Below, in pieces: positions 8,981 through 62,967 of a stretch of 64,000 nucleotides of DNA; within the stretch, counting starts at the first letter, position 1, and every line of letters begins with the position of its first letter. The translations under genes were made by a program, and so were the position numbers. The stretch spans positions 58,528,001 to 58,592,000 of the forward strand of contig OX638149.1 in NCBI GenBank assembly GCA_951804945.1, written 5' to 3'. The stretch comes from Podarcis cretensis. Its lineage: Eukaryota. A model generated the notes under the pieces. That model ran no database searches. It had not been told where the DNA came from and was given only the letters and a program-made list of their open reading frames with translations.

Positions 8981-9164
8981 AAAAAATTTAAAAATTGTCC
9001 AATAGCACCTTAGAGACCAAGTAAGTTTGTTCTGGGTATAAGCTTTTGTGTGGGTGCATACACATGAAAGCTCCATACCCAGAACAAACTTAGTTGGTCT
9101 CTAAGGTGCTACTGGACAAAAAAAAATTCTGACTGCATCAGACCAAATGGCTACCTACCTGAAT
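8981..9164. mobile_element. Palindromic Penelope-like element fragment with 13-bp TSD
   Basis: CTGATATCACAAT at 8968-8980 and 9165-9177; near-perfect inverted arms between 8995 and 9119. Family assignment is by recognition only. Confidence 0.65.
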
Positions 9165-44795: not shown

Positions 44796-44946
44796 ACTGC
44801 TGTGGTTATTTTTATGTGCCCGGTGCAATCAAATGAAGTGTCTGAAGGAAAGGTTAAAACCCCTCTCGATGTTGGAGACGGGTTTTAACCTTTCCTTCAG
44901 ACACTTCATTTGATTGCACCGGGCACATAAAAATAACCACAGCAGT
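44796..44946. repeat. Perfect inverted repeat, 67-bp arms, 17-nt spacer
   Basis: 44796-44862 is the exact reverse complement of 44880-44946. Confidence 0.95.
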
Positions 44947-45756: not shown

Positions 45757-46362
45757 CTTACTCGCCTTTCCACCCTATTAAAAATTGTTATTGGACATTC
45801 CTGGAATTTTTGGACAAATTTGTCTTTCTGTATTCAATTACTTCAGCACACAATTCCAAATATCAAGAAGTGAGTGAGATTCAAAAAGATGACAAATCCT
45901 TCAGGGCTAAGTGACAAATAAGAATTCTGTTCTGAAGTCTCCCATTGCAATTAATATTGACGTTCTAGGCCTCAAGGTTATGCTCAGTACCTTAATGCCT
46001 TAAAGGCACTAGCTAGAGAGCCTGGTGACTCCATTACAATATAATGAGGGGAAAGCTGCACAAGTTAGGGAAAATAAGTTGAAGTTGGTATTCTGCCTTA
46101 TCAAACAGTAGACCACAATTGGGAGACGGGTGATGTTGGTGGTCGCCCATCTGAACCGGGCAAAATTAAGCAATCTTGAGCAGAGGAAACACGACATTTT
46201 TATCTTGTACCTGACCATTAAAAATAGAGAAAGAAGAAAATGTATGCTTAATTATGCTTCAAAGACATCAGTAGCTCATTGCATTTGTGAGTTCTAGTCC
46301 CAGTTCCGTGCATTGTTTTTTTGCTTCTTCACCTCTGATGAAATTGGATTGGCGCAGCTCTC

Positions 46363-46570
46363 TTACACGCCACTCTTCAAGGCCACTTCTTGTTGGTTCT
46401 GTGTTTCATCAATTGCCTGGAATTCATCTGTTTGGTTTTCTGGCTTCTCATCATGCACCAAATGAACCATTTCCCGAGATCTACTGGCTTCTCCATTCAA
46501 ACCACCCTTGTTTTTCTCATTTATGCCTCCTTTGCCATTGTTGATAATAAGTTTTTGCTTCTGCCCACAT
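46363..46570 (-). CDS. CD44: CD44 last coding exon, cytoplasmic tail (CGQKQKLIIN...GEASRSREMVHLV...LKSGV*)
   Basis: ttag acceptor, phase 2; aligns with the human tail CGQKKKLVIN...GEASKSQEMVHLV...MKIGV. Confidence 0.95.
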
Positions 46571-47887: not shown

Positions 47888-47966
47888 CTCCTTCGACTGT
47901 TCACAGCAATGCAAACACCAAGTATCAATGCCAGTGCCAAGAGAGAAGCAACTACAATAAGCCAAT
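47888..47966 (-). CDS. CD44: CD44 transmembrane exon ([27 protein letters not shown])
   Basis: acag acceptor, GTAAGG donor, 79 bp; near-identical to the CD44 TM segment. Confidence 0.97.
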
Positions 47967-49175: not shown

Positions 49176-49274
49176 CTGGTATGATAGCCATTCGTGGCTC
49201 GCTTTTTGGCGATTCCCCTGTCTGGTCAATGTGTGTCCCTCTTCCGGACCCCTTCGGGTCATTTGGGTTATCAC
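49176..49274 (-). CDS. CD44: CD44 membrane-proximal stem exon (DNPNDPKGSG...EPRMAIIP)
   Basis: Strong T-rich acceptor, GTTGGT donor, 99 bp, phase 1-1; ends in RxxxIP like the CD44 pre-TM exon. Confidence 0.88.
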
Positions 49275-50176: not shown

Positions 50177-50362
50177 TGGCAGTAGGCGATGATGGATGTC
50201 TGTCAGAACCACTGTCAATTTCAGGAAAAACTCCAGGTAATACATAATCTTGAGTGCCATTTACAACAGGCTCATCTTCAGTGCTCCATTCAGGATGCAA
50301 TCCATGTAACTGTGGATCTTGTGTTGATTCTTCAGTTTTGGTTCCATCCTTTGAGACTACTG
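50177..50362 (-). CDS. CD44: CD44 repeat stem exon R10 (VVSKDGTKTEESTQDPQLHGLHPEWSTEDE...SPTA)
   Basis: ccatcattacaacag acceptor, GTAAGA donor, 186 bp, open, phase 1-1. Confidence 0.85.
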
Positions 50363-51840: not shown

Positions 51841-51987
51841 CTGTATGATCAGTATTATTTTTTTGACTTATTCCTCTTCGAGGAACAATTCCAGGAACTA
51901 AGACATCTGCTGTTGATTTCGTCGTGTATTTGTCTTCATGACCCCATTGCCTCACTGGTTCTGGGGTTGAATCTTCTTTGGCCACAT
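51841..51987 (-). CDS. CD44: CD44 repeat stem exon R9 (VAKEDSTPEPVRQWGHEDKYTT...VPGIVP...DHT)
   Basis: ccattgccatag acceptor, GTATTC donor, 147 bp, open, phase 1-1. Not in the ORF track. Confidence 0.8.
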
Positions 51988-53136: not shown

Positions 53137-53289
53137 CTGTTTGTTTGCTTTCACTATCTGAATCAACTCCCATCGGTATACCATCTCTAGAAGTATTTGT
53201 GGGATATATTTCTTCAGCATCCCAGCCTGGCTGATGAATGGGAGGTAATGGTTGTTGAGTTGAGTCTTCATGATCGTTGTGTATGACAG
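53137..53289 (-). CDS. CD44: CD44 repeat stem exon R8 (VIHNDHEDSTQQP...PGWDAEEIYPTNTS...KQT)
   Basis: caccaaacag acceptor, GTATTG donor, 153 bp. Confidence 0.8.
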
Positions 53290-53549: not shown

Positions 53550-53729
53550 CTGTATGATAGAAATTATCTATGTTATTGTTTCCAGCTGGAGGAATAACTT
53601 CTATGGGTACTTCATCCTTAGTGCTGTTTGTAGAATAATCATCTTCTCTACCCGATTCATGATGTATATCATGTACCGTTGGATCACGAGTAGCAACTTC
53701 ATGTTTGATATCATCACTGGAACCCACAA
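53550..53729 (-). CDS. CD44: CD44 repeat stem exon R7 (VGSSDDIKHEVATRDP...NFYHT)
   Basis: ccatcattatcatag acceptor, GTAGTT donor, 180 bp. Confidence 0.78.
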
Positions 53730-53992: not shown

Positions 53993-54514
53993 GTTACATG
54001 AAATGTTTTCTTTTTATTCTAACTTTCTGATAGAGGAATACTACTAAGTAGCAAGTTATCTCTAGATATTTGCAGTGTATTTTATTGTTACTTAAAAGTT
54101 TTACTGTGTGCATGAATGAAAAATGGATGTTCAAGGCTTATACCATAACTATAGGTAAAGGTAAAGTTAGGTCTAGTTGTGGCCGACTCTGGGGTTGTGG
54201 CGCTCATCTCGCTTTATCGGCCGAGGGAGCCGGCGTACAGCTTCTGGGTCATGTGGCCAGCATGACTAAGCCACTTCTGGCGAACCAGAGCAGCGCACGG
54301 AAACGCCATTTACCTTCCCGCCAGAGTGGTACCAATTTATCTACTTGCACTTTGATGTGCTTTTGAACTGCTAGGTTGGCAGGAGCAGGGACCAAGCAAC
54401 GGGAGCTCACCCCATCGCGGGGATTCAAACTACCAACCTTCTGATCGGCAAGCCCTAGGCTCTGTGGTTTAACCCACAGCGCCACCCGCGTCCCACCTTA
54501 ACTATAGACCACTG
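53993..54514 (-). pseudogene. Decayed CD44 repeat exon disrupted by a Sauria SINE
   Basis: Family-type acceptor gcatcattggaatag|CAGTGGTC (AVVYS); after removing the SINE it reads YGISLEHP...NKYTAN...DNLLLSSIPLSES*NKKKTFH, with stops and frameshifts. Confidence 0.6.
54155..54498 (-). mobile_element. Sauria SINE with 9-bp TSD
   Basis: TAACTATAG at 54146-54154 and 54499-54507; reverse complement of the 9309 copy. Confidence 0.9.
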
Positions 54515-54648
54515 CTATTCCAATGATGCTGGAATCAAGTTTAAATATTATGATTGCATGGCCAGTTCTCATATCAATTACAGACCATTGTGCCCTATCA
54601 TGACACGAGCATCTTCCTTGTTTTGTTTAATGTCAATGAATTTCTATA

Positions 54649-54849
54649 CAGTGGTACTTCAGGTTGCAGACTCTGCTAACCTGGAAGTAGTACCTCGGGT
54701 TAAGAACTTTGCCCCAGGTTGAGAACAGAAATTGTGCAGAAGCAGTGCAGCAGGCTCCATTAGCTAAGGTGGTACCTCAGGTTAAGAAAGGTTTCAAGTT
54801 AAGAACAGACCTCCGGAACGAATTAAGTTCGTAACCCGAGGTACCACTG
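54649..54849 (+). mobile_element. Tigger/pogo-like MITE, copy 4
   Basis: TA|CAGTGGTACTTC...GAGGTACCACTG|TA. Confidence 0.85.
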
Positions 54850-54963
54850 TAATTGATTTCAGTAAGATTAAAATTGCAACCTGTTATCTAGCTCAATACA
54901 GCAGCCTAATTCATCTAGAACGTAACAAAGAGAATATCTGAATTTTCTTCTTCTTGCTTGTAC

Positions 54964-55128
54964 CTATATGTGAAGTTTCATTTCCATGCACGTATTCAAC
55001 TGAAGAAATAATTCCAGGTACAAAATAATCTGTTGACGTGTTTGAAGAATGCCTGTGTTCATTGTTCTGGCCAGGATGTGCTTCTTGAGTAGAATCTTCA
55101 TGGTCACTACCACCACCAGAGACCACAG
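54964..55128 (-). CDS. CD44: CD44 repeat stem exon R6 (VVSGGGSDHEDSTQEAHPG...VPGIISS...NETSHI)
   Basis: gtgacag acceptor, GTACAA donor, 165 bp. Confidence 0.8.
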   Translation of the reverse strand: MWSLVVVVTMKILLKKHILARTMNTGILQTRQQIILYLELFLQLNTCMEMKLHI

Positions 55129-55235
55129 CTGTCACAATATAGTTAGATCATTCATTCATTCATTTATTACAATGCTTATGTAATCTATTACAAAATTGTT
55201 TACTGAGAGGCACATTACCTGGCCTTCTACTGCAC

Positions 55236-55875
55236 ATAGATTCAAGTTACAAGAAAGGAGATTCCAGCTAAACATTAGGAAGAACCTTCTGACAATAGGA
55301 GTAGCCTAACAGTGGAACGGACTCCCTTAGTAGGTGAGGGACTCTCCTTCACTGGAGGTTTTTAAGCAATTATTTTATTTTTTAAAATAATATTTATTAA
55401 GTTTTTTAACAAACAGAAGAAAAAGCATAAACAATTAACAAAAATCACATAAAGAAAATCTAAATTCAATACAAAAAACAAGATTTAACATAAAAAGAAA
55501 AAAGAAAAAAGAAAAAATCCCTCTTTCTGATGTCTTCCAATCATTTACTTATTTTCCTGACTTCCTCACACCTCCCTTTTTTGTATTCCATTTAAAAATT
55601 TATTCAGCAAATTCATACCCTCTTAATTTAACCTTAATTATTATCTTCACATATTCAAATTTCAAATTTTCATCTTATATCAATCCCTTCATACATATTC
55701 TTATTTTTCCTTATTGCTAGAACTTCATTTCATTCCAACGTCATTAGCATTCAAGTTTTTAAGCAGAGATTAGATGGTCAACTGTTGTGGAAACTTTTGT
55801 TGAGATTCCTGCATTGCAGGGGCTTGGACCAGATGGCCTTTGGAGGTCCCCTCCAACTCTATAGTTCTATGGTTA
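55236..55875 (+). mobile_element. CR1 3' fragment split by a nested antisense L1-like insertion (55369-55754)
   Basis: CR1 ORF2-end and 3' UTR sequence on both sides; 11-bp TSD GTTTTTAAGCA at 55358-55368 and 55755-55765. Confidence 0.8.
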
Positions 55876-56490
55876 TGTATTGGGAGGCTTCTGACTCTTT
55901 CTAAATAATGCATATGTTAGCCCATCAGCATCCCTAAAGGGCATGTTGATGGCAGAATTTCCTTCAAAAGATTTCAATGAAACAGATTGGTTTAACAAAA
56001 AAAAATTGTATCTCTACAAGACTATTCATGTACAGTTTTGTTTTGTTTTTGTAACTTGGAGGCATAATGCCAAGTAGCCCTTCAGCCCTAGATTTATTTG
56101 TATTTTACCTGTCCTTACTACTCCACCACTAAATTACTCCATTCATAAGTCAGTGGTCACTGTCATCCCTGAAAGTCGTAGTTATGGCAATTTATTTCTG
56201 TACTTTCTGCATTTATACACCCACCTTCTAACAGTGACTCATAAAAAACACACACCTGGGTTTGAAGGCTAAGTATGGAGAGTCGTCTCCTGTAATTACT
56301 GACTCTGCTTTTAAGTGGGTTATGAATACCATTATTTTGTTGCAAATGAATGGAACTTTATTATCAACTGGCAGAGAGAATGAGAGTAGTTGGGATAGCT
56401 CTTCAAATGGAGTACGGTGACAATGCAGTACATTTGAAAAATAATACAAAGAACTGCAAATTTATTAAAGTTCTATTTCCTGGGAGGTAC

Positions 56491-56664
56491 CTGTATGATG
56501 CGTCTCCTTTTCATGCTTTCCTTCACTTGAAAGAATAATTATAGGTGGGATATTATCCATAGTTGTGTTTGTGGTATCTTCATCTTCACTTTCCCACCCA
56601 GGATGCATTGCATGTGGTTTTTGTGTGGTGTCTTCCTGCTTGCCATTATCACTGGAGGCAACAG
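56491..56664 (-). CDS. CD44: CD44 repeat stem exon R5 (VASSDNGKQEDTTQKPHAMHPGWESEDE...KETHHT)
   Basis: ccatcattacaacag acceptor, GTACCT donor, 174 bp. Confidence 0.82.
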
Positions 56665-56884
56665 CTGTTGTAATGATGGTTTGAATATTTTTCAAATGTT
56701 ACATAGGTATCGTTCTTTTCATCAGTTCTTACTAAGTGCTATGTTTTGTTGAATTGAATCAATATCGTATCAGGTTTTTAAGTATAATTACGTTTAGCCT
56801 GATGGCATTTACCTACTATGATTTACAGTTCAAGTACCTTTCATCCAACACCAGAAGAATTAAAAGCCATTAGAATTCCTGTAC

Positions 56885-57008
56885 TTGGAAGACACCCAAG
56901 GAGGTGTTTCCATTTCAAGACTGCTTCAACTTGGAAGAGTTATTTCAGGCAGAAGATAATCTCAAGCAGCAAACAAATTTTGCATACTTTTTCATCACAC
57001 CATGCTTC
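56885..57008 (-). pseudogene. Decayed CD44 repeat exon fragment
   Basis: Pieces read EAWCDEK and DYLLPEITLPS*SSLEMETP, paralleling EWSNEE and DYVLPGV/TLPEIIHPSENE; family-like donor GTACAG. Confidence 0.45.
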
Positions 57009-57144
57009 CTGTGTTTAGTGAAAGTCCATTTATTTAAATGGAGTCAGGATTAGATCTTTACATAGTTTGAGATAGCTTCTAATTTATCTAGAGAGATTAC
57101 TGAAAAAAGAAGTAAAATGTTTTTACTATTTTTCCAGTCAATAC

Positions 57145-57324
57145 CTGTGTCTGAACGTTCATTTTCATGCTCACTTTCAGCTGCATGAAGAATTCCAGGC
57201 AGCAAATGATTTCCAGATGTGTTTGTGAGATGTTTTTCTTCATTATCCTGTCCAGAATGCTCACTGTGCAACATTGTATCCCGACCGGAATCTTCATAGT
57301 CAGTGCTATCACTGGAGACTACTG
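57145..57324 (-). CDS. CD44: CD44 repeat stem exon R4 (VVSSDSTDYEDSGRD...LLPGIL...HENERSDT)
   Basis: ccatctttgtaacag acceptor, GTATTG donor, 180 bp. Confidence 0.8.
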
Positions 57325-57506
57325 CTGTTACAAAGATGGCTGGGTCAGTTTTGAATTCTCTGCTTTCACATGCGCTTCACTAAGTGCAATTCTACTTAAC
57401 CCTAACATGGAAAGTGGAAATCAGTAACCACAATAGCCGTTTTAGATGAGACAGAACTATAGCTCTATCCAAAACGTATTCTATGGCTATAAAATCTACA
57501 CAGAAA

Positions 57507-57840
57507 ACAGGGCCAGTATACCTGAACGAGCGTCTCCCCCCCCCCCCCATCATTCTGCCCGGACACTGAGGTCCAGCGCCGAGGGCCTTCTGGCAGTTCC
57601 CTCACTGCGAGAAGCAAAGTTACAGGGAACCAGGCAGAGGGCCTTCTCAGTAGTGGCATGCGCCCTGTGGAATGCCCTCCCACCAGATGTCAAAGAATAA
57701 ACAACTATCTGACGTTTAGAAGGCATCAGAAGGCAGCCCTGTTTAGGGACGTTTTTAATGACTGATGTTTTAATGTATTTTTAATCTTTTGTTGGAAGCT
57801 GCCCAGAGTGGCTGGGGAAACACAACCAGATGGGGGGTTA

Positions 57841-57882
<42 letters not shown>
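57507..57882 (+). mobile_element. L2-clade LINE 3' end with (ATT)n tail
   Basis: Peptide ARTLRSS...RAFSVVACALWNALP; ATT microsatellite at 57841-57882. Confidence 0.8.
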
Positions 57883-57928
57883 TCTAATTTAGCTAAAAGA
57901 TTTAATGATAATGAATCACTGCCTGTAC

Positions 57929-58086
57929 CTGTATGTGGCATTTCCTTTTTACTCGCTTTTTATTCTGAGGAATGATTCTAGGTGGCTAATTAAATTTAGA
58001 TGCATTTGCAAGGTATTTATTATCACTGTCCCAGACAAGATCATATACAACCATCTCTGCTTCATGAATCTTTTGAAGCCTCTTGT
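57929..58086 (-). pseudogene. Decayed or stop-containing CD44 repeat exon
   Basis: tttcccag acceptor, CATACAG|GTACAG donor; reads ...WDSDNKYLANASKFN*PPRIIP... then shifts frame to KEMPHT; 158 bp. Confidence 0.6.
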
Positions 58087-58261
58087 CTGGGAAAGCAAAT
58101 CTTTCTGCCATAGCACTCATTTTGCCGGACTCTGGAGTATTTATAAATACTTGTCCAGATCAAGTCAACATAGGCCTTTGGTCATCAACCTCAATGGAAG
58201 ACTAAAGTAACCCAGTCTAAAAAAGGAAAAGGCAAGAATAGGTGGGTTTTTTAAAAAAAAA

Positions 58262-58376
58262 CCTTTTCATGTTTTTTTTCTCTAGCTGCAATAAATTTGC
58301 CTTCACTGCCCAAGAGGATATAAACTAGCCTACATGTGTGAATCATGAGAGGAATCTTTGTAGTTCATTCCAACAG
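58262..58376 (-). pseudogene. Decayed CD44 repeat exon
   Basis: Family acceptor cattattatagcag|CTGTTG; reads VGMNYKDSSHDSHM*, later KHEK. Confidence 0.5.
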
Positions 58377-58929
58377 CTGCTATAATAATGTCTGAATCTG
58401 TTTTAAAGACAACAAATGGTAGCGAATGGTAGCCTGATAAAGAATAGACCCATTAAAATCAGTGGACTGGAATAACATGACTCCATTCATTTCAGTGGAT
58501 CAGCTCTTGATTTAGTTAGACAATACCCTATGTTAGCAGTTTCCTCCTCATAATTATTTGATGCCCATCTTATCTAGCTTTACGGGCACTATCAGAATTT
58601 TAGGTGAAGTCAATTAAAATATTAGGTTAAGGCTTAAGCAGTATTAATTATTAGGTTAAGACTGAACTCCATATGCATTGTCAAAGTAATAAATTCCATC
58701 TGGGGAAACAATAACCTCCAATCTAACATGCCACATTTCTCAAATTCTTTTCCCAAAGAAGTATGCATGGCTTCATCTTTAAGAGGACTTCAACCCAAGA
58801 AGACTTCAAAAACATTTCTGTTTTGCTTAGAAATTTACTGATGTGCTATGCAAGCTTGCTACTATTTTCTTGTGGATTTGGGGTTTTCTAAAAAAATTTT
58901 TTGTTGTTTTTTGTTGGTTTTTTTTGGGA

Positions 58930-59293
58930 GGGACGCGGGTGGCGCTGTGGGTAAAACCTCAGCGCCTAGGACTTGCCGATCGTATGGTCGGCGGTTCGAA
59001 TCCCCGCGGCGGGGTGAGCTCCCGTCGTTCGGTCCCAGCTCCTGCCCACCTAGCAGTTCGAAAGCACTCTTAAGTGCAAGTAGATAAATAGGGACCGCTT
59101 TATAGCGGGAAGGTAAACGGCGTTTCCGTGTGCTGCGCTGGTGCTGGCTCACCAGCTGCAGCTTCGTCACGCTGGCCACGTGACCCGGAAGTGTCTCCGG
59201 ACAGCGTTGGCCCCCGGCCTCTTAAGCGAGATGGGCGCGCAACCCCAGAGTCGGTCACGACTGGCCCGTACGGGCAGGGGTACCTTTACCTTT
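58930..59293 (+). mobile_element. Sauria SINE, CpG-rich young subfamily
   Basis: GGGACGCGGGTGGCGCTGTGGG head, intact B-box, ACCTTTACCTTT tail. Confidence 0.9.
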
Positions 59294-59458
59294 AAATTGT
59301 TTTTTAATTTATTGTTTGATCTTGAGTTTACATATTTGTCAGTCATCTTGTGGAAGTTTTGTCGTTGTTGTTTTGAAAGGTGACTATACATTTATTAAAT
59401 GAATTTTAAAAGTGTAGAAAAGTTTAACAATGCTGAATTTTCTTTTTCTTCCTAGTAC

Positions 59459-59642
59459 TTGAATGAGATATTTCCAAATCCTCTTCATGCTTGTTTACAC
59501 TTGAAATGAGACCAGGCATAATTCCATTTTTAGATGTTTTTGTAGGATATCAATTTTCATTGTTCCCACCAAGATGGATCTCATTAATCTATATACCATG
59601 ATTATCAGTCTTCGCGGTTAATCTTACCTGTGGAGACCACAA
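59459..59642 (-). pseudogene. Decayed CD44 repeat exon containing a possible 15-nt microexon (59628-59642)
   Basis: gtcatcattgtagcag acceptor; VVSTGKINRED* ... HLGGNNEN*YPTKTS...MPGLISS...HEE; internal consensus donor CAG|GTAAGA. Confidence 0.65.
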
Positions 59643-59841: not shown

Positions 59842-60009
59842 CTGTATAAATGGATTCATTTTTTTGCTCATTTTCACTTGGATGAATAATTTCAGGTAGT
59901 GTCTCTTTGCTCGATGAGTTTGTAGGGTATCTTTCTTCATTGGACCATTCAGGATATATGCCATGAGATGGTGGGCCTTGAGTGGATTCTTCAACTTTCA
60001 TCCCATTAT
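59842..60009 (-). CDS. CD44: CD44 repeat stem exon R3 (NGMKVEESTQGPPSHGIYPEWSNEERYPTNSS...NESIYT)
   Basis: aagcag NAGNAG acceptor (alternative start 60012), GTATAT donor, 168 bp. Confidence 0.82.
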
Positions 60010-61372
60010 CTGCTTTTGTGGTGAAGTATTTGTTAATTTAATATATGCAGAACCACTGTCTATTGTACATGCATCTTGCAGTTCAATATGAATCCAACTA
60101 CACTGGTGGCACTCAAGGAAAAAGGGTGCCTTTTAGGGGTCTGTTTATCTGTCACTAAGTCAAGATTCTCTATTACCACTTTTTGTATAAGCACTTTTCA
60201 ATAAAAAAAAACCCAGTTCATATTTCAGTTAATTCATTTTAGTTAAATCCTTTGAAACAATATCTTATCGAGCCATTATTATGTACATGTGAAGCAAGCA
60301 TTTTGTATTTCACAGCTATAAAATGATTTTGGTTTGAAGACAACATATTTTGTTCATTTCTTATTTGCAGACAGCTAGGTTTCTAAAAAAAGAAAGAAAT
60401 AAGCTTGCACATGAGGTATTTTGACTTCCTCATAGACACATGCTGTTTATGGCACAACTACCAAGTATTTGTAAAAACAAATTTGTTCTTTCAATGTTGT
60501 GATGGTAAAGCAGGCAACAGAAATACAAATTAGTAAATACTGTAGATAATTTTAGTGATGTGGAGTATTTTCTACTTGAAGAAACGCTAAAACAACCATA
60601 ATGGGCTGCATCTACTCAACAGAGGCCCAAGCAAAATAACTGTGTGTAAAGCACTATGACACTAATATTCTTGGTGTCAGAGATTGAATTATATTGGGGT
60701 GGTGGTGTCAAGATGAAATAAAACTAATATGATATAAAGCCCTACTCAGATGATGAAATGTGACTTATCTGTTTGAATGGAATAGTGGCTCTTCTCAAAG
60801 CTACCTCTTTTTAAAACTTAGGTGCCTCTGAGGCAAAAGAACATAGGTCCACCATTCTTAACACTGACTGAGGTAGCAAGACAGAGAAATGTGCGTAGGA
60901 GCCTACAGAAGGGATGGCACCGTTTGGAGGCTGGGCCTCCATGGACTGGCGGTAATGCCATCCATTATTGGGAATGCTAACAATCCATTATTAATGGAAG
61001 GTTTTGTCAGACTGCCATGATTATCTTAGTGCCCTAATACTGGAATACTAGGAATTTACTTTAAAGGGTAGTAAGAAGGCCAAAATATATGTGAGATGCA
61101 GGTCTGTGAATGTAGCTGTCATGTAAGGGGCACGTGAACTGGATCGGAACCGTGACATAGGAGGGGCTGCTGCTTTCCTCCTGTGCAATTACCACAATAA
61201 AAATGGCTTCCGTTTTTGAAGCCATGTTTCACCCCAAATGGAGAAGCATCAGACTCCAGTTCTAATAAAGGCTGGACTTCTCGCTGAGACATAAAAGCCT
61301 TCCTATTCGCTGACATAAAAGAGAAATAGAACTGAACATAGGAAGATTACATTAACATCCTGCAGGCAGTAC

Positions 61373-61546
61373 CTGTCTGAGAAGATTCATTGTCATGAAC
61401 CTTCTCACTTTGAGGAATAAGTGTTTCTAGGACACCAAGGATCGTTCTGTTTGTGGCAGAATCACTTCTCCGCCCAGGTTTGCCCACTGCTGATAACTGA
61501 TCTTGATGTGATTCTTCATGTTCAGCACTTTCATTGAAGGCTAGAA
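61373..61546 (-). CDS. CD44: CD44 repeat stem exon R2 (LAFNESAEHEESHQD...HDNESSQT)
   Basis: atcattgctacaatag acceptor, GTACTG donor, 174 bp. Confidence 0.75.
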
Positions 61547-62778: not shown

Positions 62779-62967
62779 CTGTATGGTGGGAAGATTCTTC
62801 CTCCAGAGTTCTTTCTCTTTCACTTGATGAAACAAGCACAGGATGCAATACATCTGAATCTGTGGTTGTAGGTAATGTGTCTTCAGTTTCTAATCCAGAG
62901 AGAGCGCCATCTAGTGGATTCTGAGTTGAGTCTTCCTGCTTGAAGAAATCATCACTGGAGGACCCAG
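62779..62967 (-). CDS. CD44: CD44 repeat stem exon R1 (GSSSDDFFKQEDSTQNP...EEESSHHT)
   Basis: catcatcataacag acceptor, GTATCA donor, 189 bp. Confidence 0.82.

Follow-up and report, generated by a model that had tools for sequence, protein, structure and literature searches.

The window analyzed here, a stretch of 64,000 nucleotides from the lizard Podarcis cretensis (assembly GCA_951804945.1, contig OX638149.1, positions 58,528,001 to 58,592,000), carries on its minus strand the variable-exon (stem) region of CD44, as established by homolog retrieval and exon mapping. We hold with considerable confidence that in this gene ten in-frame cassette exons are spliced into the mRNA and are interspersed with five or six defective versions of the same exon, and that the array is likely an old tandem expansion pruned separately in individual lizard and snake lineages. 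A profile of eleven intact units matched 71 proteins, 65 of them named CD44 at their source and 6 unnamed, hypothetical or uncharacterized. The exons of Podarcis raffonei CD44 (P0086) mapped in order by tblastn, all but two appearing in the filtered table. Exons 2-3, located in the 80 kb fetched upstream of the window, match the P0086 link region at 100%, and homologs carry the link module PF00193; exons for a transmembrane segment and a conserved cytoplasmic tail follow the stem on the minus strand at 46-48 kb. The lizard gene has 15 live variable exons, 10 inside the window and 5 upstream, and in eleven variable exons a single repeated unit of about 58 residues can be recognized. One upstream variable exon, at 58595.1-58595.3 kb of the contig and about 3.2 kb beyond the window, contains a long Asp/Gly tract adjoining a Gly-Ser-Gly motif; this tract varies in length between Podarcis and Zootoca proteins.

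The features of the array are listed below in window coordinates, with U denoting live units, D dead copies, and the supporting evidence in brackets.

62779..62967, minus strand: U1, live variable exon, 189 nt (profile; RNA junction 61546/62779)
61373..61546, minus strand: U2, live variable exon, 174 nt (profile, RNA; missing in 10/10 Rhineura isoforms)
59842..60012, minus strand: U3, live variable exon, 171 nt (profile; RNA junction 60012/61373)
59459..59642, minus strand: D1, dead copy, 184 nt, acceptor intact, one frameshift and two stops (profile; open ortholog G1 elsewhere)
58262..58376, minus strand: D2, dead copy, acceptor intact, internal deletion, no donor (profile; no assigned ortholog)
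57929..58086, minus strand: D3, dead copy, family donor intact, 5' end decayed (profile; best match an open Eublepharis unit, tentative)
57145..57324, minus strand: U4, live variable exon, 180 nt (profile, RNA)
56885..57008, minus strand: D4, dead copy, marginal at 9.5 bits, protein-level z about 3.5 (profile; skipped in RNA)
56491..56664, minus strand: U5, live variable exon, 174 nt (profile, RNA)
56030..56190, minus strand: D4b, extra dead copy, limits approximate (profile, protein score; skipped in RNA)
54964..55128, minus strand: U6, live variable exon, 165 nt (profile, RNA)
53993..54514, minus strand: D5, dead copy split by a short interspersed element (SINE), flanks with their own stops in all frames (profile; skipped in RNA)
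54155..54498, strand not applicable: SINE-like repeat inside D5, presumably a Sauria SINE, between 9-bp target-site duplications (very high read depth)
53550..53729, minus strand: U7, live variable exon, 180 nt (profile, RNA; missing in 20/20 Zootoca isoforms)
53137..53289, minus strand: U8, live variable exon, 153 nt (profile, RNA)
51841..51987, minus strand: U9, live variable exon, 147 nt (profile, RNA)
50177..50362, minus strand: U10, live variable exon, 186 nt, partly skipped in reads (profile, RNA)
49176..49274, minus strand: CD44 membrane-proximal stem exon (RNA junctions; tblastn)
47888..47966, minus strand: CD44 transmembrane exon (sequence reading, RNA)
46360..46570, minus strand: CD44 cytoplasmic-tail exon, coding part (sequence reading, RNA, tblastn)

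No run recorded as RNA contains this stretch, and splicing of the live units was assessed in a related organism, for which about 12% of the data in each of two raw-read RNA runs was examined. At least 11 exon-exon junctions fell at the predicted sites in both runs (among the 15 joints listed of 269). The U4-U5 junction (60 and 57 reads) skips D4, the U5-U6 junction (29 and 51 reads) skips D4b, and the U6-U7 junction (39 and 30 reads) skips D5. U10 was itself skipped in 28 and 33 reads, and U7 in one contig run. The units lie after exon 5 and ahead of the membrane-proximal exons as symmetric cassettes that preserve the frame, alternatively included and several together; adjacent units are joined in reads, contrary to a mutually exclusive array with one unit per transcript. 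The units are cassettes included in runs. A further trait of CD44 variable exons is ESRP-dependent inclusion in epithelia. The acceptors of U0-U10 are of a common A-rich type with a poor pyrimidine tract, often a tandem NAGNAG, at which one-residue isoform differences occur.

All ten live units (147-189 nt) have lengths divisible by three and phase 1-1, and the RNA-supported live exons are free of lesions over 1,719 nt, where the lesion density of D1 would predict 28. An earlier note on this DNA, made from the sequence alone, had proposed that the copies next to the dead ones stay open and are kept in frame, and both points hold. Differences of the live exons from relatives, 17 among the rows listed, comprise 12 non-synonymous and 5 synonymous changes (1,249 and 366 sites; ratio about 0.7). 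This fits weak sequence constraint, the differences being too few and drawn from partial listings, and we make no claim about amino-acid constraint. A conserved number of live units is likewise not claimed: its variance lay below that of column shuffles in 8 genera (P 0.06) and in 18 taxa (P 0.01), the latter subset having left out 10 rows, including the two lowest counts, but P was 0.15 with all 28 rows.

The dead copies were recovered with an nhmmer profile built from 11 intact units and run over both strands of 144 kb (the window plus 80 kb upstream). Besides the training units, nine matches reached at least 9.5 bits, all on the minus strand within the CD44 stem region; the next best scored 4.4. 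Two of the nine are live upstream exons outside the window. The others are D1 (59666-59454, 61.8 bits), D3 (58067-57921, 31.8 bits), D2 (58406-58287, 26.9 bits), two pieces of D5 (54546-54495, 15.8 bits; 54080-53990, 10.9 bits), D4 (56969-56901, 9.5 bits) and D4b (56125-56051, 9.5 bits). Live units scored 49.5-130.9 bits when left out of the profile, and the reversed 144 kb gave a best score of 3.0. In null sequences modeled on the 16 kb array, a score of 9.5 bits was reached once in 100 Markov sequences and never in 100 local shuffles. All five dead copies reported in the earlier note were thus found again, three of them strongly and D5 as a copy split by its SINE, and none of the 200 nulls scores as high as D1, D2, D3 or the 5' piece of D5, answering the doubt that such copies might score no better than shuffled sequence. 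D4 is found by the profile but is marginal, because one null sequence in 200 matches its score. D4b, absent from the earlier list, scored a mean of 68.5 at the protein level, against a plus-strand maximum of 30 for its group.

Stops occur in all three frames of all six dead copies (D5 judged with its SINE removed), and the lengths of the five reported earlier, 184 nt in D1, 115 in D2, 158 in D3, 124 in D4 and 169 in D5 without the SINE, are not divisible by three, which bears out the stops and frameshifts described for them. About two thirds of 53993-54514 is SINE, and the flanks are broken even without it. D1, D2 and D5 each retain an intact AG acceptor. Taken together, these data establish the dead copies as real relics of the family exon. 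In D1, a strong donor-like site lies 15 nt past the acceptor (59627-59642, minus strand) and would give an in-frame micro-exon. This candidate was rejected on annotation, reads not being consulted.

We then compared the lesions with four sequencing runs carrying four organism labels, whose contigs were aligned to the D1-D3 region. One contig spanned D1 in each of the four genomes, with no gaps and with 1, 9, 11 and 9 substitutions over 458 nt. The length of 3n+1 is thus common to all four, so the frameshift is shared and is not the assembly error that it might have been. None of the 40 substitutions listed of 117 hits the D1 stops. For the D2-D3 pieces, the indels listed are incomplete. Three of the four genomes carry a stronger, family-like donor base at 59459 (D1). 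Run X3 and the data set that best contains this stretch belong to one study, and X3 is possibly not independent of the assembly. Separately, a SINE-like insertion at window 58877-59292 is missing in all four genomes, whose contigs join 58876 to 59293; it is therefore recent or polymorphic in the present genome.

To place the units in a comparative framework, units were cut from 33 proteins with an iterated profile, and those of 23 proteins were scored against the window with a frameshift-aware aligner; one profile was then built per group. The units of 171 isoforms from 28 squamate taxa fall into 15 groups and keep a colinear order in 170 of these isoforms, the remaining one showing a partial U8 repeat in Heteronotia; Eublepharis has one further unit beyond the 15. 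A quick tree of 154 units groups them by position rather than by species (22 label changes against 117.5 shuffled), and every Podarcis live unit has orthologs outside lacertids. Content differs between lineages: the 28 taxa show 18 distinct presence patterns, and a Dollo count over 8 genera gives 13 losses. Units missing in annotated, predicted proteins are U2 in Rhineura, U7 in Zootoca, U5 and U6 in Pogona, and U3, G1 and U7 in Python. In the U2-U3 intron, no relic of group GA or GB scored above the plus-strand control.

D1 has an open ortholog in other lizards, as the earlier note had anticipated for dead copies at orthologous positions. All 8 top-scoring units belong to group G1, whose 14 units average 82 while the next groups reach 68 and 52, and D1 and G1 occupy the same position, between U3 and U4. 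G1 is open in Rhineura, Hemicordylus, iguanians, Varanus and geckos. It is present in 10/10 isoforms of Rhineura, 7/7 of Hemicordylus, 17/20 of Pogona and 19/19 of A. carolinensis and in 0/52 of Podarcis and Zootoca, which suggests that D1 died on the lacertid branch. D1 is identical to its Rhineura counterpart at 27/60 positions (0.45), against 0.68-0.93 for the 10/10 live units compared. A pseudogenized copy with a functional ortholog elsewhere, and orthologs that cluster by position, are both features of birth-and-death evolution.

Births presented a different picture. The highest paralog identity was 0.36-0.48 in 22/22 squamate proteins, with no pair above 0.48 that would signal recent duplication, and no whole-unit gain was found in the squamate isoforms or the tree. 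Unit pairs at 0.90-1.00 identity occur in 4/8 turtles and 3/3 ratites. In six turtle and ratite proteins (P0140, P0189, P0206, P0224, P0231 and P0242), a unit or a block of two units is present 3-6 times in nearly identical form. Births in squamates are therefore old, at least 15-16 positions preceding the squamate radiation, and those in turtles and ratites are recent. Turnover runs in both directions across reptiles and birds, and in this lizard's lineage only loss is evident. The earlier proposal that the array gains and loses units like a gene family inside one gene thus stands in part: loss is observed and the gene is CD44, but the squamate units are old positional orthologs, and current gain in this lineage is not borne out. 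Alligator (11 matches), goose and other birds carry the unit as well. Of three mammals tested, only echidna (P0259) gave a weak match to the unit profile (12.6 bits; 0/200 shuffles as high), with no match in rat (95/200 shuffles as high) or sugar glider (66/200; 8.8 bits with an upstream-exon profile). The unit was not detectable by profile in two amphibians, and profile comparison gave no support for homology between the upstream acidic exon and mammalian v3.

These observations are consistent with an array that was likely built before lizards and snakes diversified, because one broken copy is still intact in other lizards. Each unit is a symmetric phase 1-1 cassette with its own splice sites, encoding a low-complexity, acidic, Ser/Thr-rich spacer. 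Because such cassettes are symmetric and self-contained, duplication or loss of a unit would leave the frame of the rest undisturbed. In a unit that is mostly skipped, stops, frameshifts and SINEs would build up freely, while included units would be kept open. For D1, a lesion followed by transcript decay is possible, because the acceptor is kept and three of four other genomes have the family-like donor base; the order of skipping and first lesion is not readable here.

Several points weigh against this account. Assignment of units to groups was in part manual and guided by their order, the quick tree is built on 59 columns and leaves 83 of its 151 forks open, and the species tree behind the Dollo count and the placing of the D1 death is general background. 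Absences in other species refer to annotated proteins rather than genomes, with 9 of 28 taxa represented by a single isoform. The joining of U3 to U4 over D1-D3 does not appear among the 15 joints listed of 269 and comes from annotation: in 45 lacertid proteins with U3, the next unit is U4 in 43, U5 in 1 and U6 in 1. Run X7 alters the family-frame stop of D3, with no listed indel that repairs its frameshift. The turtle and ratite repeats could be partly assembly artifacts. A firm open ortholog exists for D1 only. D3 is tentatively assigned, its score of 72 for the Eublepharis unit comparing with 65 for a U4 unit, and D4b, whose best squamate match is tentatively group GC (open in Hemicordylus and P0019), scores 79 with the Hemicordylus unit and equally 79 with a turtle unit. 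D2, D4 and D5 have no assigned group and might have arisen within squamates or within lacertids before dying.

The last point leads to an explanation that we regard as improbable, namely that the lacertid array is still gaining units and that D2-D5 are failed duplicates born in lacertids. The missing orthologs of D2, D4 and D5 fit it, as does the best group of D4, its neighbor U4 (mean 27, z 3.5), and turtles and ratites show that such births occur. The squamate paralog identities and the orthologs of all Podarcis live units outside lacertids speak against it, and D2, D4 and D5 are more decayed than D1, as older deaths would be. We consider it very unlikely that some broken copies are poison exons, tuning CD44 through nonsense-mediated decay, or donors of five-residue micro-exons. 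The acceptor and donor-like site of D1, the AG acceptors of D2 and D5 and the stronger base at 59459 would suit such a role, and decay would hide these transcripts in ordinary RNA data. However, the micro-exon peptide occurs in 0/45 lacertid proteins with U3, RNA depth in the D2 bin is intron-like (0.15 and 1.68), that in the D1 bin is explained by its 51 nt of U3, and D1 diverges faster than live units. Least likely of all is the view that faulty assembly made the lesions, or that the weak copies are AT-rich intron sequence resembling the unit by chance. This is already refuted for D1-D3; the length of D1 is shared, the D1-D3 scores lie above the nulls, and each copy has several independent lesions. 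The null-edge score of D4 and the partial substitution and indel listings are what speak for it. An old array pruned by lineage accounts best for these data.

Beyond the array, glutamate-transporter-like exons, read from the sequence alone, lie on the plus strand at 11-33 kb, tail to tail with CD44. We take this neighbor to be SLC1A2, a gene that we also assume to be syntenic with CD44. Its exons (window 11131-33312) show two alternative ends, presumably GLT1b and GLT1a, with a read-through at 29.5 kb and a last exon at 33.2 kb. Near-perfect inverted repeats at 44796-44946 (72-nt arms, 7 nt apart) and 8995-9119 (45-nt arms, 35 nt apart) are possibly miniature transposons.

In mammals, the variable exons of CD44 have received much attention. 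Human v1 is described as non-functional through a stop codon (PMC2136215), v1 is reported in mouse (PMC12563948), and one paper treats CD44 exons as mammalian gains (PMC5703972). No description of reptile CD44 exon evolution or turnover was found in the literature searched, which did not cover subscription papers or supplements. The gene and the principle are already known, and the reptile-wide staggered loss of CD44 exons appears undescribed there. A tentative wider reading, which we find possible but somewhat doubtful, is that the CD44 variable region derives from one amniote-ancestral exon unit rather than a mammalian novelty, with squamate attrition from about 20 positions and block duplication in turtles and ratites. 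If true, the region would amount to a vertebrate exon array whose fossil record can be dated, the same position being alive or dead by lineage. Each reptile lineage appears to keep a different subset, with relics still readable. This makes a natural series for how a cassette exon dies, by splice signal or by frame first, and the array suits asking whether selection keeps stem length or particular units.

The lizard array shares with mammalian CD44 v1-v10 the gene, the stem location, cassettes included together in runs and a dead member (one in human), whereas it has 15 live variable exons, 5-6 relics and eleven recognizable copies of one unit, a larger array of such repeats than in mammals. 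The exon arrays of Dscam in insects and crustaceans are likewise tandem paralogs, described as evolving by birth and death, with paralogs that diversified before recent speciations (PMC3236188). In contrast, the choice among Dscam exons is mutually exclusive and these exons code for parts of Ig domains, whereas the lizard units are joined to their neighbors and encode a low-complexity spacer. The birth-and-death model, which PMC3236188 cites, was framed for multigene families, in which orthologs likewise group across species, pseudogenized copies persist and content differs by lineage; here the units are exons of one gene, with only losses in squamates and recent gains, within our sample, only in turtles and ratites.

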